Source of the DNA: Kangiellaceae bacterium
Lineage (GTDB): Bacteria; Pseudomonadota; Gammaproteobacteria; Enterobacterales; Kangiellaceae
Direction: 5' to 3'
Assembly (NCBI GenBank): GCA_965230525.1
Contig: OZ246008.1
Location: forward strand, 903,251-967,250
DNA length: 64,000 nt
The stretch's first letter is position 1, and every line of letters starts with the position of its first letter. Below the pieces are notes generated by a model. That model searched no databases. It was not told the origin of the DNA and was given only the letters and a program-made list of their open reading frames with translations. A program made the translations under genes and the position numbers. Below, in pieces: positions 1,527 to 37,413 of the stretch.

Positions 1527-3794
1527 ATGATTAAAAATACCCTCAAACAATCTGGGTGGTTCTATTTGTGGGTCGTTTTATCGATTGTTAGTTTATGGAT
1601 CACTGCTAATAACCGTTTTGAATACTTCGAAAGTCACAATTTAAAGCTACTCAGTCAAATGCGGCAAAGTGAAACGCTAGATCCGCATATCATTCGTTTG
1701 GTAATTGAGCAACAGTCTTCTGATGATATTGCATTCTATCAATCGCTGAAAAAGCAATTTCCGGTCGCCACCGTGATTCTTGCTAATGATTTAGCTCAGC
1801 GCACTCAGTTGATGATAAACCATCAAGTTGATTTATCTGATCGTGTGATAGCGTTATCCAAAAATACAATAACTAGCGACCCACTGACACAAGCCGATCT
1901 TGTTAGTCAATTTTTACCGACTGCAAATTCGTCACTCAGTTGGTCTACTTTGGCAAACTTAGAACTCGCAGTGCAATCCGTTCCATCGCTAAACTCAACC
2001 AGCGCTGTTTTTCGAAAGGACGATAAAATTTATCCTGGTTTATTGGTTGCGGCGTTAATTAAGTACCACAACGGCAGTGCTAAACTTTCACAAAACCTCA
2101 CCCACTTAACGCTGCAATTCGATTCGCAACGAACACAATTGTCTCAGTTAAATTTAGGACTCACCGGCAGGTTAATTAGTTTTGAAAAAAATGCGCCTTT
2201 ATTTGGTATCGAGCAATTGCAAGCAGCGATTGACGCTAAGTTTGACGGTCTTTTAATTGTTGATGATCTTTCAAGCTCTGTTGGAAAAAATCTATACAAT
2301 GCATTGCAGGGAATCCAAGCAAATGACTATTTAGTTGACAACCTATTTTGTTACTTGCTTATGTTTTTGGCTTGGGTTGTGATGAGCTTGATTATCTTTA
2401 AGTTTAATGTTCTTACCGTGGCTAGAAAAATCTTGCTAGTTTTTGCTTCAATAATTTCATTGTTGTTAATACAAATAGTGCTAAGTAAGTTTTCTATTTG
2501 GTTACCAATGACTAGTATTCTATTGTTTTCGATTTGTTCGATCCCTTTAATTTTTGGCGTTAACAAAGAAATGCAACAGAAGCAAAATATACACTCAAAT
2601 ATTAATAGTGCTGTGATCGAATCGGCGCTCTATCTGTTAAGAAATCAAAAAGCAAAAACATTATTAGATTTATTATCGAATTGTATTCCGACCAAAGCGC
2701 TCATCGATGTTTTGGTCGAGACTGCTGTGGAAGCAGAAACGCAACGCAACACCGCAGTCGCCTGCCAGCTTTATGAGTGGATTCTAACTCACGACAAAAA
2801 TCATTCTATTAGTAAACAGCGGTTGGCAGAAATTAACGCTGCCGATGAGCCCGCTGAATTAGACCAAACATTAGTGATCGAAAATGGCCAACAGTCCGTT
2901 GCTAAACCGACCAATACTAATGGCATTTTAGCCATCAAAAATTTTGGGCGATACCAAGTAGAAGGAATCATCGGGAAAGGCGCTATGGGGATGGTTTTTC
3001 AAGGTGTGGATCCCAAAATCAATCGGCATGTTGCGATTAAAACTTTACAGCTTAATGATGAACTAGATGATGAATCACTAAATGAAAGAAAGCAGCGGTT
3101 TTTTAGAGAAGCAGAAACTGCGGGTAATCTAAGTCATGCCAATATTGTTACTATCTACGATGTCGGCGAGCAGAAACACCCAAACTCAAACCAATCGCTG
3201 GGCTACATCGCAATGGATTTACTCACTGGCGCGCCGCTTTCAGAGTTTATTAAGGCGGATAAACTCCTTCCACCCCCGCTAGTCTATCAATTGATGATTC
3301 AAATGACTGACGCACTTGATTATGCGCATCGACAAAAAGTGATTCATCGAGATATTAAGCCTGCTAATATTATATTCGATGATGATTTACAACGAGGTAC
3401 CTTGACTGATTTTGGTATCGCTTATATGTCAGATCACAGTAAGACCAAAACCGGAACCATCATGGGTAGTCCCTATTACATGTCGCCCGAACAGGTTATG
3501 GGGCAAACCGTAGATGGACGATCTGATATTTTTAGCCTAGGTGTTACCTTCTATCAGTTGCTAAGTGGCCATCTTCCATTTAATGGAGAATCGATAGCCA
3601 CGGTCGCTTTTCACATTACCAAAACTAAGCACGAGTCAGTTCGAAACATGAACAAAAAACTCTATGCAAGTTCAACTAGAATTACTAATAAAGCGATGCA
3701 AAAAGATCCGGTTAAACGATACCAATCGATGCAAGAATTTCGTCAAGCATTAGTGAATGCACTTAAGAGGGACTACAAAAAGTCACCGCTATAA
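1527..3794 (+). CDS. Membrane Ser/Thr protein kinase (Hanks type) with N-terminal CHASE2-like sensor topology
   Basis: The C-terminal kinase domain carries GKGAMGMVFQG (P-loop), VAIK, HRDIKPANI, DFGIA and SPYYMSPE. The N-terminus has one TM helix, about 250 aa of predicted periplasmic sequence, then three TM helices (aa ~275-345). This is the CHASE2 layout. Confidence 0.9.
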   Translation: MIKNTLKQSGWFYLWVVLSIVSLWITANNRFEYFESHNLKLLSQMRQSETLDPHIIRLVIEQQSSDDIAFYQSLKKQFPVATVILANDLAQRTQLMINHQVDLSDRVIALSKNTITSDPLTQADLVSQFLPTANSSLSWSTLANLELAVQSVPSLNSTSAVFRKDDKIYPGLLVAALIKYHNGSAKLSQNLTHLTLQFDSQRTQLSQLNLGLTGRLISFEKNAPLFGIEQLQAAIDAKFDGLLIVDDLSSSVGKNLYNALQGIQANDYLVDNLFCYLLMFLAWVVMSLIIFKFNVLTVARKILLVFASIISLLLIQIVLSKFSIWLPMTSILLFSICSIPLIFGVNKEMQQKQNIHSNINSAVIESALYLLRNQKAKTLLDLLSNCIPTKALIDVLVETAVEAETQRNTAVACQLYEWILTHDKNHSISKQRLAEINAADEPAELDQTLVIENGQQSVAKPTNTNGILAIKNFGRYQVEGIIGKGAMGMVFQGVDPKINRHVAIKTLQLNDELDDESLNERKQRFFREAETAGNLSHANIVTIYDVGEQKHPNSNQSLGYIAMDLLTGAPLSEFIKADKLLPPPLVYQLMIQMTDALDYAHRQKVIHRDIKPANIIFDDDLQRGTLTDFGIAYMSDHSKTKTGTIMGSPYYMSPEQVMGQTVDGRSDIFSLGVTFYQLLSGHLPFNGESIATVAFHITKTKHESVRNMNKKLYASSTRITNKAMQKDPVKRYQSMQEFRQALVNALKRDYKKSPL

Positions 3795-29074: not shown

Positions 29075-30097
29075 TTGCTACAAATCAATAATCAAACACC
29101 GTTTAACGCTGAATTACACCCCTATGAAGACCTGCACGGTAGAGATTATGCAATTATCATCATTAAAGGCACCTTCAATCCCTGTGGTGACCATTTAGGA
29201 ATGACCCTTTGTGATGAGCAAGCGCCAATTCAACATGCTGATGAGTATTATGGTGAGCCGGGGCAATCCAGCATTAAATACCCCACAGATCTCGCTTTAG
29301 TTAAAAAATCCACCGATTTGATATTACTCGGGCACGGTTATGCTCCCGGTGGACGGGCCACCAATCAATTCGATGTTAGTTTATCGGCGGGTAATTTTCA
29401 GCATACCGTCAGAGTGTTTGGTAATCGCTTTTGGCAAAAAGAGGGTCTTACTTGGCAGCCTAGTCGGCCAGAAAGCCTACAAAAAATGCCGCTTACCTAT
29501 GAAAACGCCTTTGGAGGAAGTGATCCTCATGCTGATCCACAAGGCAGCGAAGCGTTCGAATATGATCCGTCTAATCCGATTGGCAAAGGTTTTATCCCTA
29601 AAAAAGCAAATCCTATCGAAGGATTGGCTTTGCCTAACCTCGAAAACCCAAATGATTTAATCGTCGATGAAGATAGCCAGCCAAAGCCCTTTGGGTTTGG
29701 AGCGATAGCTAGGGACTGGCAACCTCGGCTTACTTGGGCCGGAAGCTATGATGAAGCCTGGCAATCACAAAGAATGCCACTATTACCTTTGGACTTTGAC
29801 GCTCGTTTTTTCAATGCTGCCCATCCCAACTTATGCATCTCACCTGAACTTGTAGGTGATGAAGTGATGACGATCAAAAATGCTACTGAATCAGGCTTAC
29901 TTTCATTTCAGCTCCCTAATCAACAACTAATCGCCACCGCAAGTATGCGAGGACAACAAGCCGATTTTATAGCGAAACTCGATACGGTTGTCATTGAGCC
30001 CGACGAGAACCGAGTTATGTTGACCTGGAGAGCGGCTATCCCAATCAAACGCAAGTTTCTGTATTTAGACTCTGTCACCATTAAAAGGCGTCACTAA
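29075..30097 (+). CDS. DUF2169-domain protein (T6SS adaptor/chaperone family)
   Basis: Contains NNQTPFNAEL...DYAIIIIKGTF, DEYYGEPGQSSIKYPTDLALVK, MPLTYENAFGG, NPIGKGF, LPNLENP, PFGFGAI..W.PRLTWAGSYDEAWQSQRMPLLPLDFDARFFNAA. This is the conserved DUF2169 pattern. The start is TTG after AAGGA. Confidence 0.85.
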   Translation: MLQINNQTPFNAELHPYEDLHGRDYAIIIIKGTFNPCGDHLGMTLCDEQAPIQHADEYYGEPGQSSIKYPTDLALVKKSTDLILLGHGYAPGGRATNQFDVSLSAGNFQHTVRVFGNRFWQKEGLTWQPSRPESLQKMPLTYENAFGGSDPHADPQGSEAFEYDPSNPIGKGFIPKKANPIEGLALPNLENPNDLIVDEDSQPKPFGFGAIARDWQPRLTWAGSYDEAWQSQRMPLLPLDFDARFFNAAHPNLCISPELVGDEVMTIKNATESGLLSFQLPNQQLIATASMRGQQADFIAKLDTVVIEPDENRVMLTWRAAIPIKRKFLYLDSVTIKRRH

Positions 30098-30098
30098 A

Positions 30099-31187
30099 AT
30101 GACTCATGCTGAGACTGGAACAAATAACTCAATTGTGATTACCGCAATGGGAGCGGTTACGGCTGTGGGTGGCAATGTAGAGCAAAGTACAGCGGCAATC
30201 GCAGCTGGCATTACACCTTTTGTTGAGCACTGCTATTACCAATGTACCCCCGCGGACCCAGAATGGGACGAAGACTTACCCGCCTATGTTGCAGCTGCCC
30301 CGTTTGTTGAGTTTCATGTCGACAACCTAGAACGTTTTAATCAATTGATCATTCCCGCTTTAAAAGAGTTATTCGCACAAAGTCACATTAAAAGACAAGC
30401 GTTGTCTAAAACTGGGCTCTTGGTGGCGCTGCCAGAGGCTGAAAGTGGATTGCAAAAACTAGCACTTGACGATCTGTGGTTAACTGATGTTCGACGTCAC
30501 ATGGGGTTAGTTGGACTAAAAAATGCTCGCACTAATCGCGATGCTCATGTTGGTGTTTTTAGCGCGATAAACCAAGCCATGGAATCTTTAAAAAATGGGC
30601 AATTAGAGCAATGTATAGTGGGTGGCGTGGACAGTTACTTGCTGCAAAGTAGAATGGCCCATTTTGATAAGCTCTGGCGGTTAAAAAGTAGCCGAAATGT
30701 AGACGGGTTCATACCGGGCGAGGCCGCTACAATGTTAATGTTAGAGACCGAGCAGCATGCGCTTGCTCGAGGCGCTGAAATTTTAGCGGTAATTGGAAGT
30801 GTTGGCTTTGGTGTCGAACCTAATCACATTTACTCTGAGCGAGCGAGTAGCGGTAAAGGTTTGACTGACGCAATTCGACAAGCGCTTGCAGCCGATTCAA
30901 GTGATCAAAATTTTGCCATGATCGGCTGTGACCTTAACGGTGAGAGTTATGCAAGCCAAGAACTTGGGTTGATTGGTACACGATTAGGTGATCGGTTTGG
31001 CGCTGATACCGAAATTAGCCATCCCGCAGACAGTTGTGGTGATGTGGGTGCAGCTTCAGGCGGGTTATTGATCATCAATGCAATCGATCGAATTCAGCAA
31101 ACCGACACCAACAATCTATTATTGACCACTGCTAATGATGACGGTCGGCGCGGAGCGCTCATCATCAAAGCTCCTAGAAAGGCTTAA
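30099..31187 (+). CDS. Thiolase-fold, beta-ketoacyl-synthase-like protein lacking the Cys-His-His triad
   Basis: Colinear with KAS I/II: IVITAMGAVTAVGGNVEQSTAAIAAG, DGFIPGEAATMLMLETEQHALARGAEILAVI, DSCGDVGAASGGLL. The catalytic positions read ...RDAHVGVFSA... (no Cys), ...CDLNGES... and ...CGDVGAA... (no His). The ATG is 1 nt after the DUF2169 stop. Confidence 0.7.
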   Translation: MTHAETGTNNSIVITAMGAVTAVGGNVEQSTAAIAAGITPFVEHCYYQCTPADPEWDEDLPAYVAAAPFVEFHVDNLERFNQLIIPALKELFAQSHIKRQALSKTGLLVALPEAESGLQKLALDDLWLTDVRRHMGLVGLKNARTNRDAHVGVFSAINQAMESLKNGQLEQCIVGGVDSYLLQSRMAHFDKLWRLKSSRNVDGFIPGEAATMLMLETEQHALARGAEILAVIGSVGFGVEPNHIYSERASSGKGLTDAIRQALAADSSDQNFAMIGCDLNGESYASQELGLIGTRLGDRFGADTEISHPADSCGDVGAASGGLLIINAIDRIQQTDTNNLLLTTANDDGRRGALIIKAPRKA

Positions 31188-31234
31188 AAGTACTAAAAAA
31201 GCGTTGCGATAAAGTATAATTTAAAGGAAGTAAC

Positions 31235-31705
31235 ATGGCTGCAACTATTAATGTAAATAATCGAACTGTTGTTCATAAATCCAGTGATGGGATTGTCACT
31301 GTTTTCCCTGATGTTTGTAAAACTCCGACTCCTGGAGGGCCGGTTCCTATCCCCTATCCCAATATTGCGATGTCTTCAGATACTGCTAAGGGGAGTAAGT
31401 CGGTCAAAATGGACGGCAACCCAATAATGCTCAAGGGATCCAATTTTAAAACCAGTACCGGCGATGAGCCAGGCTCCTTGAAAGGCGTTGTTAGTAGCAA
31501 AATTAAGGGTAAAGCGGAATTTGTTAATTATTCTTTTGATGTCAAAGTGGAAGGAAAAAACGTTCCGCGTTTAGCCGATATGATGATTCAAAATAAAGGT
31601 GGCGTTGCCAATACTGCCCCTATTCCAGAGGTTCAGCCACCTATTGTTGTGCCTCCGCCACCAAGTCCAGAAGAAAACCAAATAACCAAAATTGAGATTA
31701 TCTAA
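31235..31705 (+). CDS. DUF4150 (PAAR-like) protein with proline-rich C-terminal tail
   Basis: Contains FPDVCKTPTPGGPVPIPYPNIAMSSD..GSKSVKMDGNPIM..GSNFKTSTGDEPGS.KGVVSS...VKVEGKNVPRLADMMIQN, the DUF4150 signature. The tail is PIPEVQPPIVVPPPPSPEE. Confidence 0.85.
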   Translation: MAATINVNNRTVVHKSSDGIVTVFPDVCKTPTPGGPVPIPYPNIAMSSDTAKGSKSVKMDGNPIMLKGSNFKTSTGDEPGSLKGVVSSKIKGKAEFVNYSFDVKVEGKNVPRLADMMIQNKGGVANTAPIPEVQPPIVVPPPPSPEENQITKIEII

Positions 31706-31716
31706 AGGAGTAGAAC

Positions 31717-33207
31717 ATGGCATTGGTGCAATGGGTTAATTTGGACAAGCATAGTGACTATGCGGCTGATTCTGATATTGGAAGTATCGATCGATGTGGC
31801 GCGCTAGAAATAAAAACCGCGTTTGCTTCGGGCAGTGTGCCCCTCTCTTACAAAGTTAAAGTGTCCCCTTCGGGTTCAGATAACGTCACCTACACGACGG
31901 CAGAATTAGGACGCAATAGTAATTTCAAAATGACCAAAGGAGCGGCAGATTTAGGAACCCAATCCGAAGTGGTTATGAGTGATACTGTTAAACTTCCGGC
32001 TGCCGGTGGGAATAAATATAAACTTGAAGCAAAGGATGCGAACGGAAAGGTTGTCTCCAGTCAGGAAATAGAGGCCAAGCGAAAACTTTATTATCAGTTT
32101 ATGCACATGGAGGATTCTAACGGCAAAGTCACGCCCTATGCGCTTACTCAAATGGAAGGTCATTGTGCGAAGTATCATATTGTTTTAAGTAAAGCGGGTA
32201 CGGATAAAAAAATTCCGTTTCGCAAGTGCATCAACTCTGGTCCCGGTGGTAGGTTTACTCATGTTGGTTTTGCCGCGGACGTAAATTCTCAATACGATTT
32301 AACCGCGCCGCAAAAAAAGGTTGGCTGTGTTACGGCACTATCAAATTATATTGCCTCGTTTAAAAGCACAACTAAAACGCTCACTCATTCAATAGGTGGT
32401 CCGGCTAATCCGAAAATATCGATCACACCAAGTGTGGCAGCAGGCGCTGCTACTGCGGCAGGTATACCCGGAAAAATTACCTTAGCCGTTTTATCGGGTT
32501 ACGAGTTTTTATGGTACGGATTGGACGATGATGATGACCTGGCTAAAGTTTGGTTTATTGATGGAGCTGTGAGCTTTACTCCAAATACTTCTAGTTCTTC
32601 ACCTTCTGCTATGGCCGGTCAATCAATTCAAATTAGTCGTTCGGATGTCAGTATAGGTGGAAGCAAAAAACGAACTCATGGCGGTTATCAAGAGATAGAA
32701 GTAACCATCAATCCAGGATCTACTTTAGATAATATGATTTCGCAAACGAGTGGTACGCTAGATTTTGCTTTTGAGTTGAATCGAGTAAAAGGCTTTAGTG
32801 GTGGTTTTAGTTGGGGTGGTGCTGGATTTGCTTTAACGACTTGTTGTACTAAAGCATGGTTTGAAGATAAACAGCCATCTGCTAGTGACGTAATATGGAA
32901 TCACGAAGTAGGACATAGAATGGGTATGGTGGCATTTGGTGATAAGCCCAACGCTACTTACCCTAATCCGAAACTGCCAGATGCGCCGCCGCATTTGTAC
33001 GGTGAGAAACGTGGGGTTAATGATAAGGGGCATCAAGGTCCTCATTGCGAAGAAGGGGCTGTCACTTACAATGCAACCACAAATAGCTGGAGCGGCACGC
33101 CAGGTTGCGTGCTTTTTGGTGCGACCGGTACTTCAGCAGCCAGCTCGCCGCTCGATTATTGTAGCGACTGTACTCCGGTAGTCAGAAAATTAGATCTTTC
33201 TTTCTAA
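31717..33207 (+). CDS. Candidate cargo/effector: 496-aa protein with a single HExxH (HEVGH) motif and Cys-rich C-terminus
   Basis: AGGAG lies 6 nt upstream of the ATG, which is 11 nt after the PAAR-like stop. It contains WNHEVGHRMGM and a C-terminal 90 aa with 5 Cys (..GPHCEEG..PGCVLFG..DYCSDCTP..). I do not recognise the N-terminal ~380 aa. Confidence 0.55.
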   Translation: MALVQWVNLDKHSDYAADSDIGSIDRCGALEIKTAFASGSVPLSYKVKVSPSGSDNVTYTTAELGRNSNFKMTKGAADLGTQSEVVMSDTVKLPAAGGNKYKLEAKDANGKVVSSQEIEAKRKLYYQFMHMEDSNGKVTPYALTQMEGHCAKYHIVLSKAGTDKKIPFRKCINSGPGGRFTHVGFAADVNSQYDLTAPQKKVGCVTALSNYIASFKSTTKTLTHSIGGPANPKISITPSVAAGAATAAGIPGKITLAVLSGYEFLWYGLDDDDDLAKVWFIDGAVSFTPNTSSSSPSAMAGQSIQISRSDVSIGGSKKRTHGGYQEIEVTINPGSTLDNMISQTSGTLDFAFELNRVKGFSGGFSWGGAGFALTTCCTKAWFEDKQPSASDVIWNHEVGHRMGMVAFGDKPNATYPNPKLPDAPPHLYGEKRGVNDKGHQGPHCEEGAVTYNATTNSWSGTPGCVLFGATGTSAASSPLDYCSDCTPVVRKLDLSF

Positions 33208-33867
33208 ATGGAATTTAAGAAACATTTACCGATCATACTTTTAGCTCACTTATGCGTTATATTAATTTCGTGCAAAGCTAATACTTCCAACAAAGGAGAA
33301 AGCCTAATGGCGGACCAACTTTACCAAATACCTAAAGATTGTGATTTTAGTAAAGTGCTAAATGGAGACACCCATTCCAACGAATGTACTCCGATTCTCG
33401 ATAATAAATTCTTTAGCAAGTTTTCGGGAATTTTAATTAATGGCCCGGAGCAAGTGGTTTGGCCTAAAGATGGAAACCCTGAAGACTATCCAGTAGGGCC
33501 GTGGGGAACTTCCGAGGGACCATTCCGATTAATGCTTGCAGGGTTAGTTAGGACAGAATATAAAACCCTTGGTTTAAAGGGTGAGGCTTCGGAAGAGGTC
33601 TTGTTAGTTGCGGTTAATCAAAAAACGGCAAAAAGTTATTCAGGAAAAATGCCAAAGCCTGACGTCGATACTGCACCCGATTTTGATATGGGTATGGAAG
33701 AAATCCCGCTATCAGAAGAAGAGCAGAATAAACTAATTACCAGTTACTTTAATTTTGATCTCGTGCAAGATTTAGGTTTGCCGATTGCTAATGCCAGCTA
33801 CAATGTTTATGCAACACTCGGAGAAATGAAATCCAATTCAATCATTATTCACACCAAAGTGGAATGA
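33208..33867 (+). CDS. Island family A, copy 1: predicted lipoprotein (candidate immunity protein)
   Basis: The ATG directly abuts the upstream stop (TAAATG). It has the signal peptide plus lipobox MEFKKHLPIILLAHLCVILISC. It shares a conserved core with 34351..34911 and 35356..35949 (IP..CDFS......(E/Q)C(T/S)P, GILIN, GP(F/L)R(L/I)M(L/V)AG, (V/I)NQ(K/E)T, (Y/V)YA(T/V)LGE/A.KSN). Confidence 0.65.
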   Translation: MEFKKHLPIILLAHLCVILISCKANTSNKGESLMADQLYQIPKDCDFSKVLNGDTHSNECTPILDNKFFSKFSGILINGPEQVVWPKDGNPEDYPVGPWGTSEGPFRLMLAGLVRTEYKTLGLKGEASEEVLLVAVNQKTAKSYSGKMPKPDVDTAPDFDMGMEEIPLSEEEQNKLITSYFNFDLVQDLGLPIANASYNVYATLGEMKSNSIIIHTKVE

Positions 33868-33925
33868 TTGAAATTAGAGTTCTTAAATTTTTCGCTCAAT
33901 TATATGCTAAAAGGAACTTCGAGCC

Positions 33926-34300
33926 TTGAAAGAACATCAACAAAGTTCAAACAAAATCATTATCGAAGCTATATCGGCGATTAAAGCTGACCCCAATAAA
34001 ATAGTGATTCATGGAAAGTTTGATATCGAATATGAAGCTAGCGGTCTGTTGACTCGCGGCTCTGAAATCTTAAATCACATCATTCTCGTGGTGACTCGCT
34101 CAGGAAATTATCAATCTGTCACACCCTTTCAAGATGTTATTGCTTTTGAAGATGATGTCCAAGAAAATGATTCGGGCTGTAGTGGTGTTTTCAATATTGA
34201 TCTATTCAAAAAAATTCTCTTCGATGGGCCGGGTGACTATTACATCCTCTGTTCCATTGGTTCTGTTACTTCAAATATCTTGCACGTTAAACACAATTGA
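33926..34300 (+). CDS. Island family B, copy 1 (small all-beta-looking protein, no signal peptide)
   Basis: TTG start; the frame opens only at 33911. Clear paralog of 34939..35298 (HIILVVT, PF.D.I.FEDD.Q..(D/G).(S/G)CSG.F, DYYI(L/M)CSIG..TS.I). Confidence 0.55.
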   Translation: MKEHQQSSNKIIIEAISAIKADPNKIVIHGKFDIEYEASGLLTRGSEILNHIILVVTRSGNYQSVTPFQDVIAFEDDVQENDSGCSGVFNIDLFKKILFDGPGDYYILCSIGSVTSNILHVKHN

Positions 34301-34350
34301 TATTCAAGCAAGAATTTCGATTTATGCTTTACTAAGAGTAGTCGAAAAAT

Positions 34351-34911
34351 ATGCATAGTCGCCTTTATGAAATTCCAGAACAATGTGATTTCTCTACAGT
34401 TTGGAATAATACTGCTAACGCTAACGAATGCTCTCCAAAACTTACACCAGAATTCTTTAACCCTTTTCAAGGAATCTTAATTAATACTCCAATCACAGTG
34501 GAGCTAGATGGTAACTTAGACCTCAAAGACTTCATAGTAACACCTGCGGGTCATCGAGAAGGACCACTAAGAATCATGTTGGCAGGTTCACTTCAAGTAC
34601 CAGTCGGCACATTAAATAAAGACTGTGGATTGAATGAAAAAGTGTTGATAGTTGCTATCAATCAAAAAACTGCAGAAACGTTTAGTGGTTATATGAGTCT
34701 TTTCGGATTTAAAGTCGACCCCATTGAAATTCCGTTACCTGAAGGCGAAACAGAGGAAGATATCGCTAAAGGTGATGTTCGAGAGTTATTTAATGTTGAT
34801 TTAATAGAAAACCTAAAACTCCCAATTATGACAGCGGATTATACTGTTTACGCAGTTCTAGGCGAGTATAAGTCGAATGTGAGAGAGGTCAAAGTGCGAG
34901 TAAAGAAGTAG
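34351..34911 (+). CDS. Island family A, copy 2 (no signal peptide)
   Basis: ATG at 34351, with an in-frame stop 12 nt upstream. It is colinear with A1 from residue ~34 onward and is the most divergent of the three copies. Confidence 0.6.
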   Translation: MHSRLYEIPEQCDFSTVWNNTANANECSPKLTPEFFNPFQGILINTPITVELDGNLDLKDFIVTPAGHREGPLRIMLAGSLQVPVGTLNKDCGLNEKVLIVAINQKTAETFSGYMSLFGFKVDPIEIPLPEGETEEDIAKGDVRELFNVDLIENLKLPIMTADYTVYAVLGEYKSNVREVKVRVKK

Positions 34912-34938
34912 CCTCTTTAGTTACTGAGTCTAATAGTT

Positions 34939-35298
34939 ATGATTAAGAATAATTACTTTATAGCAATTGAAAATCCTTCAAAGACAAACAGTAAAGAAAC
35001 TTTGATGATTCAAGGACAATTCAGAGTTCCTTATCATCAATCTGGTATTACTGTGCAAGGTGCTGATATGCTAAAACACATAATATTGGTTGTCACAATG
35101 GGTGGTGCTCGTGCAGTCGTTCGCCCATTTAAGGACTATGTGATTTTTGAAGATGACATTCAAGACGATGGACAAAGTTGTAGTGGCTATTTTAAATTCA
35201 ATGCGTTTGAAAAGATATCGTTTACCGAGGGTGATCACTATTACATAATGTGTTCGATAGGAACCTTCACTTCTGATATTGTTAAAGTCTCAGTTTAA
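34939..35298 (+). CDS. Island family B, copy 2
   Basis: ATG start. Roughly half of its positions are identical to B1 by eye. Confidence 0.6.
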   Translation: MIKNNYFIAIENPSKTNSKETLMIQGQFRVPYHQSGITVQGADMLKHIILVVTMGGARAVVRPFKDYVIFEDDIQDDGQSCSGYFKFNAFEKISFTEGDHYYIMCSIGTFTSDIVKVSV

Positions 35299-35355
35299 TA
35301 CCTTGTTGCTTTTACAATCAAAACTCTACAAATAAAAATATTTTTATTCTGCGCT

Positions 35356-35949
35356 TTGTTTGCGTCAAAGGCATCAGTAGAGAAGCCGATGAAAAATGAA
35401 CATTATAAAATTCCTGAAAACTGTGATTTTAGTAAAATTTACAATGCGAATTCAGAAGAAAATCAATGCTCACCAAAACTAAACGACAAGTTCTTTAGTG
35501 AATTTTCTGGAATTCTAATTAATGCACCCAAAATAGTAGAATGGCCAAAGAATGTTCATTTAAAGGATTATTATCCAAGGCCATCAGGCACATCTTATGG
35601 GCCGCTAAGATTGATGGTCGCAGGTTTGATCCGGACGCAATATAAAACTCTTGGTCTAAATGGTGATACTAGCGAAGCCGTAGCATTGGTGGCTATTAAC
35701 CAAGAGACCAAAGCTATACTCTCAGCAAGAATGCCTAGACCAGATTTTGATTTACCACCAGATTTTGAAAACGAAAGTCCTGAAAGAACTCGAAATGAAG
35801 CCGAATTAAACGCACTAATTACAAATCACTTTAATTTTGATTTAGTTCATGACTTAGGATTACCGATAGCGGAAGCTAATTATCAGGTTTATGCTACTCT
35901 TGGAGCAATGAAGTCAAATGTGGTGGAAGTTAAAACTGTTATCAAATAA
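35356..35949 (+). CDS. Island family A, copy 3 (start uncertain: TTG 35356 or ATG 35389)
   Basis: Closest paralog of A1 (e.g. FFS.FSGILIN.P..V.WPK, RTxYKTLGL.G..SE.V.LVA(V/I)NQ, FNFDLV.DLGLPIA.A.Y.VYATLG.MKSN). Confidence 0.6.
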   Translation: MFASKASVEKPMKNEHYKIPENCDFSKIYNANSEENQCSPKLNDKFFSEFSGILINAPKIVEWPKNVHLKDYYPRPSGTSYGPLRLMVAGLIRTQYKTLGLNGDTSEAVALVAINQETKAILSARMPRPDFDLPPDFENESPERTRNEAELNALITNHFNFDLVHDLGLPIAEANYQVYATLGAMKSNVVEVKTVIK

Positions 35950-35967: not shown

Positions 35968-36486
35968 TTAGAACTTCTTTAACCTTATTTTCGAATCTTT
36001 CACATTGATACTATTCGAAGTGAACTCAAGATACTTTGCAGTTAATTCGATATTTCCAAGCACATCTTCCAGAGCATCTTTAAAATAAACATCATCTACA
36101 GCTATGCTAAATTTCTCGGTTACTATTTGATCACATGGCTTTTGAGAGTATTCATCATATACTTGATTACCATCCCAAGAAATAGACAAATGATTATCAA
36201 TTGATTCATACTCTTGTCCACTTTCAAGATTCTTAATAGTAAACATAATGGTTTCTGGAAATTGAGACCAAATGGCATATTGACTGCCGCAATTAACAAA
36301 AACTGAAAAACTTCCTTCAATCCTCAGTTTATTCTTATCATTTGCTGCATCATGGCTTAATTGAATTCTTAGTCCTTGAGTTTGGTTCATTCTTTCCTTT
36401 CCATTTACTTCACTAGTGTATGAGTATATTAGTGTCAGTAGAGCTAACGGTAGAACCAACGACGTTTTGTCTCTAAAATGATTCAT
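35968..36486 (-). CDS. Secreted small protein, possible divergent family-B relative (convergent with the array)
   Basis: ATG at 36486 gives the signal peptide MNHFRDKTSLVLPLALLTLIYSYT. There is weak colinearity with B1/B2 (LRIEGSFSV ~ IVIHGKFDI; GNIELTAKYLEFTSNSINVK ~ GDYYILCSIGSVTSNILHVK). Confidence 0.45.
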   Translation of the reverse strand: MNHFRDKTSLVLPLALLTLIYSYTSEVNGKERMNQTQGLRIQLSHDAANDKNKLRIEGSFSVFVNCGSQYAIWSQFPETIMFTIKNLESGQEYESIDNHLSISWDGNQVYDEYSQKPCDQIVTEKFSIAVDDVYFKDALEDVLGNIELTAKYLEFTSNSINVKDSKIRLKKF

Positions 36487-36594
36487 TGTTTCTGAATCCT
36501 CAAAACTCATTTATTAACCCATTAAGCGCTATGGCGACTTGATTTTCAATTATATGTCACAATTAAAGTTATCTCGACTTTAACGGGAACTTCT

Positions 36595-37413
36595 ATGTCT
36601 CCACTTATAATTATCGGCTTGGCCGTTGTGGGTTTGATTGGCTATATACTTTTTAAGCCAAGATGGATTGAATCTAAACGCAATCAAATCAAATCGCAGC
36701 CCTTTCCTAAAGAGTGGCGATCCATTCTTAAGCGAAACGTTCCCTTTTTCTATTCAATGCCCGCAGATTTGCAACTTCAACTTAAGCAACACGTTTTAGT
36801 GTTCTTGCAAGAAAAGACGTTCTACGGATTTGAAGGGATTGAAATAAACGATGAAATTAGAGTCACAATCGCAGCACAGGCCTGTTTGTTACTACTTAAT
36901 CGAAAAACTAATTATTACCCCAAGCTGAAATCGATTTACGTTTATCCTGCCGCGTTTATCACTCGACATGCCACTCATGATTCTGCTGGCGTGTTACAGA
37001 ATCAAGCAAGAGTTTTAAGTGGTGAGTCTTGGGAATTAGGTAAAGTGATACTTTCTTGGAAAGACAGCCAGCATGGTGCACAAGTTTTTAACGATGGGCA
37101 CAACGTGGTGATTCACGAATTTGCTCATCAGTTAGATCAAGAGACCGGGATCGCTAACGGCGCGCCCTTCTTGAAACATAAAAACAAACAGTGTTGGTCA
37201 CAGGTTCTATCGAAAGAGTTTGAAGAGTTACAGCGTAAGGCGCAACGAGGCGAGGATTCATTGCTTGATCATTATGGCGCAACAAACCCCGCAGAATTCT
37301 TCGCGGTTGCTAGTGAAGTGTTTTTTGAGCGGCCACAAGCCATGCAGCGACAGCATTCTGCGTTGTACCAGCAATTACAAGGGTTTTATCATATAAACCC
37401 TGCTATTTGGTAA
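36595..37413 (+). CDS. mtfA: M90 zinc metallopeptidase MtfA-like
   Basis: Has an N-terminal TM segment, a HEFAHQLD zinc motif and the ...NPAEFFAVASEVFFERP motif typical of MtfA/DUF980. Confidence 0.8.
   Translation: MSPLIIIGLAVVGLIGYILFKPRWIESKRNQIKSQPFPKEWRSILKRNVPFFYSMPADLQLQLKQHVLVFLQEKTFYGFEGIEINDEIRVTIAAQACLLLLNRKTNYYPKLKSIYVYPAAFITRHATHDSAGVLQNQARVLSGESWELGKVILSWKDSQHGAQVFNDGHNVVIHEFAHQLDQETGIANGAPFLKHKNKQCWSQVLSKEFEELQRKAQRGEDSLLDHYGATNPAEFFAVASEVFFERPQAMQRQHSALYQQLQGFYHINPAIW

Follow-up and report, generated by a model that had tools for sequence, protein, structure and literature searches.

Type VI secretion system (T6SS) toxins that act as metallopeptidases are known but, to our knowledge, few in number, and their substrates are largely unknown. 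Here we analyse a 64,000-nucleotide stretch of Kangiellaceae bacterium DNA (contig OZ246008.1, positions 903,251 to 967,250; henceforth the window), in which the gene at 31717..33207 encodes a 496-residue protein, X, that is likely to be a toxin carried as cargo by an orphan auxiliary cassette of the T6SS, acting as a zinc hydrolase and neutralised by the product of the lipoprotein gene downstream of it. The downstream lipoprotein family is termed I and its small paralogue Y, and L- and P-numbers designate genome loci and X homologues, respectively.

In terms of biology, one of the closest described counterparts is the C-terminal domain of Pseudomonas aeruginosa VgrG2b with its partner PA0261, which, like the pair proposed here, combines a T6SS-delivered HExxH toxin with a lipoprotein immunity protein (PMC6899460). 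The initial annotation of this DNA had invoked it as a precedent, and as an analogy this stands, in that X would work alike and relatives of X also occur as C-terminal extensions of VgrG; it does not extend to any relationship in sequence or fold. VgrG2b-Cter is a small α-helical thermolysin-like gluzincin of ~190 residues with HExxH and E983 (PMC6899460), and in the present genome X is a separate cargo protein as opposed to a VgrG domain. Homology between the two was rejected, as no VgrG2b chain appeared in the profile searches of PDB sequences or among the Foldseek matches listed (top 50).

The genes preceding X recall a second group of systems, namely those of Tse7 (PA0099), PefE and VP1415 (PIPY/DUF4150), with which the cassette shares the order DUF2169, thiolase-like, DUF4150, described as “synteny type A” (PMC11883445) or Tvp class II (PMC13373197). 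For these characterised effectors the toxin, a nuclease in the case of Tse7, is a C-terminal extension of the PAAR-like protein (PMC11883445, PMC13373197), whereas here the PAAR-like protein is only 156 residues long and the toxin is encoded by a separate downstream gene. Further, VgrG, DUF6484 (TvpC) and the armadillo-like gene are all missing from the 64-kb window, and the small cytoplasmic Y is an extra component.

For the enzyme itself, the nearest comparisons lie within the metzincins. The archaemetzincin signature is HEXXHXXGXXHC-X4-CXM-X17-CXXC, in which the third zinc ligand is supplied by the His that precedes the first Cys, and a structural zinc, located immediately beneath the catalytic site and beside the Met-turn, is held by the four Cys; in adamalysins two disulfides are found where archaemetzincins have this Cys4-Zn site (PMC3427221). 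Archaemetzincins (M54; AfAmzA 3ZVS/4AXQ, MkAmzA 2X7M, MlAmzA 3LMC) and X alike display, in order, HExGHxxG[LM], HC, CxM, ~15-17 residues, CxxC and a C-terminal helix, with four invariant Cys in each. They differ in that X has ~38-75 residues between the Gly and the HC dipeptide, and 19 residues, predicted to form a β-hairpin, between the first and second Cys as against 4. Additionally, X places an Ig-like domain and ~270 mostly β residues before the motif, in contrast to a total length of 160-210 residues in the archaemetzincins, which are housekeeping enzymes and not, as proposed for X, T6SS toxins with immunity genes; neither a PF07998 nor a Foldseek match links the two. The adamalysin/reprolysin-type enzymes (M12B snake-venom metalloproteinases and ADAMs) and myroilysin provide the best unmanipulated profile matches to X (E 8e-5 to 2e-3). 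The X motif resembles the adamalysin HExGHxLGMxHD, and its four Cys are in places comparable to those forming the two adamalysin disulfides (PMC3427221). However, the third His at +6 is absent in X, the two resemble each other over no more than ~50 residues around the motif, and both the domain architecture and the biology are different.

The X family and its sequence signature

The initial annotation had described a 496-residue open reading frame with WNHEVGHRMGM near residue 395, and both are borne out: the frame starts with ATG, preceded 7 nt upstream by an AAGGAG Shine-Dalgarno sequence, and the motif spans residues 394-404. The features of the gene are as follows.

31717..33207, forward strand: X, candidate T6SS cargo effector of 496 residues, starting with ATG, without a signal peptide and without a Pfam or NCBIfam match
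31798..32091, forward strand: N-terminal Ig-like β-sandwich (~residues 28-125), including the invariant LPAAGG, delimited from AlphaFold2 secondary structure, local Foldseek matches and conservation
32896..32928, forward strand: WNHEVGHRMGM, the predicted HExGHxxGM zinc-binding/catalytic motif, within predicted helix 387-402; supported by conservation and by adamalysin profile matches down to E 8e-5
32929..33030, forward strand: insert from the motif Gly to the HC dipeptide, 34-38 residues here depending on the boundary chosen and longer in some members (pLDDT ~70)
33031..33048, forward strand: HQGPHC, with H439 and H443-C444, conserved; C444 is the first Cys of the four-Cys cluster
33106..33120, forward strand: CVLFG, the putative equivalent of the CxM Met-turn, with Leu in this copy; aligned by hhalign with archaemetzincin fragments (probability 96.7%)
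33160..33171, forward strand: CSDC, the CxxC pair C482/C485, last of the four invariant Cys, followed by a predicted C-terminal helix (485-491)

The tail behind the motif had been put at about 90 residues with five Cys; its length of 92 residues agrees, whereas it holds only four Cys (C444, C464, C482 and C485), the remaining late cysteines, C376 and C377, both being N-terminal to HExxH.

Scans of Pfam and NCBIfam returned no model above threshold for X. Nevertheless, the family is a large one: a word-indexed search recovered 89 full-length relatives, all unnamed and devoid of Pfam domains, an exhaustive profile search recovered 850 clusters (at 50% identity) at E<=1e-3, with 232 at E<=1e-30, and a genome scan located 74 loci. 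Its members span at least nine phyla, with representatives in Gammaproteobacteria (including a Kangiellaceae metagenome-assembled genome syntenic with the window), Massilia, Telluria, Myxococcota, Planctomycetota, Desulfobacterota, Verrucomicrobiota, Bacteroidota, Acidobacteriota and Nitrospirota; a tblastn search of plasmids gave no match. The family is most likely new. Within the literature covered, which excludes subscription journals, we found no paper on it, none linking archaemetzincin-like enzymes with the T6SS and none on DUF2169/DUF4150 modules with metallopeptidase cargo.

A single HExxH is expected by chance in a protein of 496 residues about once in 70 cases (an estimate) and is thus not rare; its significance in X derives from its conservation across homologues. 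In an alignment of 294 distinct members to the family profile, with identity down to ~23%, H396 and E397 are kept in 291/291, G399 and H400 in 290/291, and G403 and M404 in 272/291. The insert, while variable in length in the full-length family alignment, holds a conserved LPD..P..LYG in which Y428 is kept in 288 of 289 members. Downstream of it, H439 is present in 276/287, G441 in 286/289, H443 in 287/289 and C444 in 288/289 members, while C464, C482 and C485 are without exception (289/289). C464 mostly precedes V-M, the Met (M466) being found in 264/289 members and replaced by Leu in 21, including the copy in the window; G468 follows in 288/289. Together these define the family signature HExGHxxGM-(~38-75)-HxGxHC-X19-CVM[FY]G-X13-CxxC. 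The initial annotation had named loss of HExxH among homologues as grounds for giving up the enzymatic assignment; the motif proves to be invariant.

Conservation is not limited to the C-terminal part. N8, E63, R66-N67, the AGG of LPAAGG and R122 are invariant and are kept in every architecture, indicating that the N-terminal part belongs to the functional unit and is not a mere docking tag. Matches to the N- or C-terminal part alone in the genome scan raised domain shuffling as a candidate explanation, which was rejected for the two loci that were inspected, L078 and L070: each codes for a more divergent member of full length in which HExGH, HC, CxM and CxxC are retained.

Predicted fold and proposed relationship with the metzincins

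An AlphaFold2 model built with the family alignment has a mean predicted local distance difference test (pLDDT) of 89.8 and a predicted template-modelling (pTM) score of 0.84. It begins with the Ig-like sandwich (~28-125), which is followed by a large mixed, mostly β region, in keeping with the earlier statement, made from composition, that the N-terminal ~380 residues are β-rich. Strands at 346-377 lead into helix 387-402, which bears HExxH, and then come a long loop (403-446, pLDDT ~70), a hairpin (447-462) and a short C-terminal helix past the CxxC. This order of secondary structure elements is compatible with a metzincin catalytic domain. Foldseek, which the initial annotation had recommended, was run on the full model and on a second model of residues 118-496 and brought up no significant match in the PDB. 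With the full model, only local Ig-like matches were obtained there (HAP2 domain 3, probability 1.00, target-normalised TM 0.51-0.57). A Foldseek search of a viral library yielded nothing. With residues 118-496, the best metzincin, and the only one seen, was the TACE catalytic domain, a weak match at E 0.3 with a TM of 0.24 (query-normalised) or 0.33 (target-normalised). The predicted fold would hence be either not close to any solved structure or too decorated for recognition.

Profile searches of PDB sequences with the X family matched metzincins almost exclusively. A profile of the full-length family (A1) retrieved adamalysins at E 0.0025 and myroilysin at 0.05. One confined to residues 340-496 (A5) retrieved snake-venom metalloproteinases at E 8e-5, myroilysin at 1.6e-3 and serralysins at ~0.02, with archaemetzincins at 0.14 through the CVM...CxxC block alone. 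When the insert was spliced out of 28 diverse members (A6), archaemetzincins rose to the top (3ZVS 1.8e-4, 4AXQ 2e-4, 2X7M 6.8e-4, 3LMC 7.5e-4) in a single alignment running through HExGH, HC, CVM and CxxC, of which only the C-terminal half is independent evidence, the splice rebuilding HExxHxxGxxHC by design. An hhalign comparison of the unspliced profile with three archaemetzincin fragments, themselves picked from the previous match, gave a probability of 96.7% and E 4.7e-10 (as a single comparison) over tPgCVMFGa...p..FC.dC..VR. This alignment of CVM...FCxxC..R is independent of HExxH, and in it the C-V-M of the family lines up with the archaemetzincin CxM. Sub-threshold Pfam matches, each found in 2-4 of 33 family members, are to Reprolysin_3/5, Peptidase_M57 and DUF3152.

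The initial annotation had held that the motif does not fit the metzincin extension. Literally this is true: HExxHxxG is present, the contiguous HExxHxxGxxH/D is not, and the nearest invariant His are H439 and H443. What that statement overlooked is that the tail contains HC, CxM and CxxC in the archaemetzincin order. The contiguous M54 signature is likewise absent, all its elements occurring in order with different spacings (G...HC ~38-75, C...C 19, M...C 15), and Peptidase_M54 (PF07998) matched neither X nor any of 33 family members even at E<=1. Because it fails the contiguous-motif and profile tests, X is not filed as a member of either the metzincins or the archaemetzincins, and is best described from its sequence as representing a new metzincin-like family of T6SS effectors.

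Apart from the design of the splice and the choice of fragments noted above, several observations weigh against a metzincin-type enzyme. The canonical third-ligand site, +6 after the second His, is not conserved, with Ala in X itself as compared with Ser, Thr or Pro in other members; no Pfam peptidase model reached threshold in X or the 33 members scanned; Leu takes the place of the Met-turn Met in this very copy; neither the full model nor residues 118-496 found a significant fold match in the PDB; and even for archaemetzincins proteolytic activity has been difficult to demonstrate (PMC3427221). It is nevertheless very probable that X is a zinc-dependent hydrolase using HExxH, and metallopeptidase chemistry is likely. 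With less assurance, we lean towards a catalytic domain derived from the metzincins, with a displaced third ligand (H443 or, less likely, H439) and a four-Cys brace of the archaemetzincin or adamalysin type. H443 would then have to lie near the HExxH histidines to act as the third zinc ligand.

T6SS context and the candidate immunity genes

The genes around X had been reported as a PAAR-like gene upstream and an abutting lipoprotein gene downstream, and both are confirmed. The upstream module comprises three genes.

29075..30097, forward strand: TvpA-type chaperone (DUF2169) for PAAR-like spike tips (PF09937, E 9.9e-93)
30099..31187, forward strand: thiolase/ketoacyl-synthase-like (KS-like) accessory protein (partial PF00109, E 7.6e-10; PRK06147, E 3.3e-67, below cut-off)
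31235..31705, forward strand: stand-alone PAAR-like (Tox-PAAR-like/DUF4150/PIPY) spike-tip protein of 156 residues (PF13665, E 1.6e-42)

The chaperone role of DUF2169/TvpA proteins is described in PMC11883445 and PMC13373197. The KS-like gene is kept at the same position in ~35 loci, and its product is in our view the counterpart of the “additional PAAR chaperone” (TvpD-type) in Tvp class II, while the PAAR-like protein displays a PIPYPNIA motif and a Pro-rich C-terminal tail. The order KS-like, PAAR-like, X, I, Y recurs in Gammaproteobacteria, Myxococcota, Planctomycetota, Nitrospirota and others, so that the gene context is preserved to a much greater extent than drift alone would allow. In L003 the block is preceded by Hcp, VgrG, DUF6484, a 417-residue gene and DUF2169, with ClpV nearby; the 417-residue gene lacks a Pfam match and occupies the place expected of the armadillo-like gene.

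A second, more distant group of loci lacks the TvpA-KS-PAAR-like module. Upstream of X several of those inspected have VgrG (L030, L032) or a DUF4123 adaptor (L065, L066), and in L069 visual inspection identified a gene of the canonical PAAR type. Further, a conserved protein of 250-270 residues without a Pfam match is encoded directly upstream of X in L030, L031, L033, L034, L056, L061, L067, L069 and L071, several copies starting with “MLKI..EQ”. It usually ends 3-36 nt before X, the maximal reading frames overlapping X in L030 and L056, and it may be an undescribed T6SS adaptor for the X family.

In other members X occurs as an entire module joined to VgrG (P0216, P0206), PAAR (P0170), DUF4280 (P0159) or TssD/Hcp (P0217, P0219). 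When a single module is found joined to each class of core protein that the T6SS secretes, this classically marks a toxin domain of that system. On the opposite side, no VgrG or other T6SS core gene lies in the 64-kb window, where the cassette is an orphan auxiliary module among housekeeping genes, and a functional T6SS elsewhere in the genome is an assumption.

Downstream of X is an array in the order I1-Y1-I2-Y2-I3, the first gene of which begins one base past the X stop codon. Neither I nor Y has a Pfam or NCBIfam match above threshold.

33208..33867, forward strand: I1, candidate cognate immunity lipoprotein of 219 residues, with a signal ending …VILISC and lipobox Cys22
33926..34300, forward strand: Y1, predicted 124-residue cytoplasmic paralogue of the I C-terminal domain, without a signal peptide (hhalign of Y and I alignments)
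34351..34911, forward strand: I2, orphan I paralogue by homology to I, starting at the conserved Met and lacking a signal peptide
34939..35298, forward strand: Y2, second Y paralogue by homology to Y
35356..35949, forward strand: I3, orphan I paralogue without a signal peptide, with the conserved Met at 35389

An I homologue follows X in nearly all of the 74 loci, often in several copies, and the orphans I2 and I3 share only 38-47% identity with I proteins from the two closest relatives. The syntenic Kangiellaceae relative L001 provides a reference for divergence: the flanking genes are 85-90% identical, the PAAR-like protein 97%, the KS-like protein 81% and DUF2169 75%, as opposed to only 48% for X and 44% for I. 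Such low identity of X and I amid conserved flanks is the usual pattern of effector-immunity pairs under diversification or cassette exchange, and the contrast between the PAAR-like protein and X suggests that the toxin-immunity part alone was replaced or diverged fast. The cassette, spanning 29075-35949, lies at the same chromosomal site in L001, between a DUF4440 gene and an M90 gene.

It could be argued that X is not an enzymatic toxin at all and instead has a structural or accessory part in the T6SS, or is a toxin without catalytic function built on a metzincin-like scaffold in the manner of CarG. The want of a fold match and the existence of non-proteolytic archaemetzincin relatives (PMC3427221) could be read in this way. 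Nevertheless, we regard it as highly improbable: the catalytic Glu is universal in the family, whereas the archaemetzincin homologue CarG has lost it, a downstream gene that is strictly paired with X and diverges fast is, like the orphan arrays, a hallmark of toxin-immunity pairs, and the fusions to VgrG, PAAR and Hcp are typical of toxin domains. The effector role of X is strongly supported by the T6SS synteny across phyla, these fusions, the downstream I gene and the divergence of X and I. The proposal of the initial annotation, a new metallopeptidase-type antibacterial T6SS effector, to which the invariant HExxH lends further support, is accordingly well backed by computation; the reading of X as a metallopeptidase-type effector with an immunity protein is supported, not proven.

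Y proteins (116-149 residues; 119-124 in the window) are homologous to the C-terminal ~100 residues of I (hhalign probability 95.4%, E 1.7e-8) and lack a signal peptide in all 42 copies. They are restricted to loci that also carry the module of DUF2169, KS-like and PAAR-like genes: 21 loci have both, 24 neither, and 2+2 are discordant, the two with Y and no PAAR-like gene being parsing artefacts, in an association that is confounded with subfamily. Y may act as an antidote on the side of the producer or as a loading adaptor that derives from an immunity protein. As to how I might inhibit X, a cysteine switch through its C[ST]P motif was considered and set aside, the Cys being absent in several lineages where S/T-P alone is kept.

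Some genes at the edge of the cassette and beyond may be noted separately. A 180-residue protein with a signal peptide is encoded at 35968-36510 on the reverse strand, in the same place in the Kangiellaceae relative and also in L008; it has a weak sub-threshold match to the c-type lysozyme inhibitor (E 0.0039), and a relationship with I or Y was rejected (hhalign probability 11%). Adjoining the cassette, 36595-37413 encodes a second HExxH protein (HEFAH), an ordinary MtfA-type Peptidase_M90 (E 7.8e-92) that shares 85% identity with its counterpart in the relative; this gene belongs to the housekeeping set and not to the cassette. Elsewhere in the window, 1527-3794 encodes a 755-residue protein unrelated to X, with a C-terminal Ser/Thr kinase domain (E 3.5e-48) and ~470 N-terminal residues without assignment.

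Compartment of action and proposed mechanism

The initial annotation had placed the target of X in the periplasm. In support of this, I has a signal peptide or lipobox here and in most loci, including most of the proteobacterial and Bacteroidota ones. Against it, about a third of the I genes in first position behind X lack a signal peptide (among them those of Myxococcota, Planctomycetota, Thiodictyon, Colwellia and Desulfobacterales), and a start site internal to the signal-bearing genes as well as the cytoplasmic Y point the same way. In 52 of 58 signal-bearing I genes a Met is found 19-36 residues before C[ST]P, exactly at the start site of the signal-less copies. The Shine-Dalgarno pairing energy at this internal ATG averages -4.71 kcal/mol, equal to that of true starts (-4.77 at X gene starts), as compared with -2.56 and -2.48 for the remaining Met codons inside I and X (Mann-Whitney test, p 1.3e-5 and 1.6e-6, values that overstate independence as the sequences are related). 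In I1 the internal start reads AAAGGAGAAAGCCTAATG; its ATG lies at 33307 (Met34) and follows an AAGGAG, the energy being -8.7 kcal/mol. This suggests that one I gene could give rise to a lipoprotein plus a cytoplasmic isoform. Taken together, the signal-less copies, the internal start and the cytoplasmic Y suggest that protection from X, or at least its binding, is required not only in the periplasm but also in the cytoplasm, and a zinc-braced metzincin could be active even before export.

These features count against a strictly periplasmic toxin in which the four Cys form disulfides, I serves solely as a lipoprotein with its internal Met unused, and Y is a mere adaptor. Such an alternative, which seems to us rather unlikely, does draw on the signal peptides of most I proteins, on the adamalysin precedent of two disulfides in place of Cys4-Zn (PMC3427221), on P0165, an X homologue with a peptidoglycan-binding LysM domain, and on the tendency of Y to track the PAAR-like module rather than X-I as such. 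For X as proposed here, a target restricted to the periplasm is doubtful, and on whether its main lethal action is periplasmic we are evenly divided.

The LysM fusion of P0165 points towards the cell wall and is relevant to another alternative, namely that X is a zinc hydrolase that does not degrade proteins and attacks peptidoglycan stem peptides or cross-links, or an amide or ester bond of an envelope precursor on both sides of the inner membrane. HExxH chemistry is not limited to protein substrates, and immunity in two compartments would fit a substrate on both membrane faces. However, all detectable sequence relatives are metzincins that cleave proteins or peptides, and the Pfam, PDB profile and Foldseek searches gave no similarity to known cell-wall hydrolase families, which makes this decidedly unlikely.

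In the mechanism that we favour, with X as a cargo peptidase, the DUF2169 chaperone and the thiolase-like protein would stabilise the PAAR-like/PIPY tip, as can be inferred from published work on such modules. X, as a separate protein, would ride on this tip or on its Pro-rich tail, and a VgrG encoded elsewhere in the genome would carry the assembly, firing of which would bring X into a neighbouring bacterium. There it would act as a zinc-dependent hydrolase, most likely a peptidase, in which, judging from the sequence, H396 and H400 would bind zinc and E397 would serve as the general base, the third ligand being H443, ~43 residues downstream, in lieu of the canonical +6 position. C444, C464, C482 and C485 would form either a putative Cys4 zinc site, as in archaemetzincins, or two disulfides, as in adamalysins, beneath the active site and by the CxM Met-turn. 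I would block X, here as a lipoprotein and probably also as a cytoplasmic isoform from the internal start, with Y as a cytoplasmic antidote in the producer or a loading adaptor. Of this account, the computation shows the family signature, the synteny, the fusions to T6SS core parts and the pairing of X with I, whereas zinc binding, peptidase chemistry, the identity of the ligands, the loading route, the compartment of action and the substrate are inferred. A more elaborate and rather tentative version would have a new metzincin-derived toxin family in which an insert has moved the third zinc His and the Cys4 cluster ~40 residues away from HExxHxxG, countered by a two-compartment antidote for which one gene would yield a lipoprotein and, through the conserved internal start, a cytoplasmic isoform. 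Y, a truncated paralogue, would here have been drawn into PAAR-like loading, where it would serve as an adaptor or as a safety catch before secretion.

The X family, with its 850 clusters at 50% identity, is thus widespread and without prior study. If the proposed assignment is true, it adds a new catalytic-site layout to the metzincins. Additionally, X offers a tractable separate cargo with which to study loading by the DUF2169/Tvp class II pathway, itself described recently. With the internal translation start of I and the paralogue Y, it also presents a testable case of two-compartment immunity; were this reading true, X would already be active in the cytoplasm of the producer.

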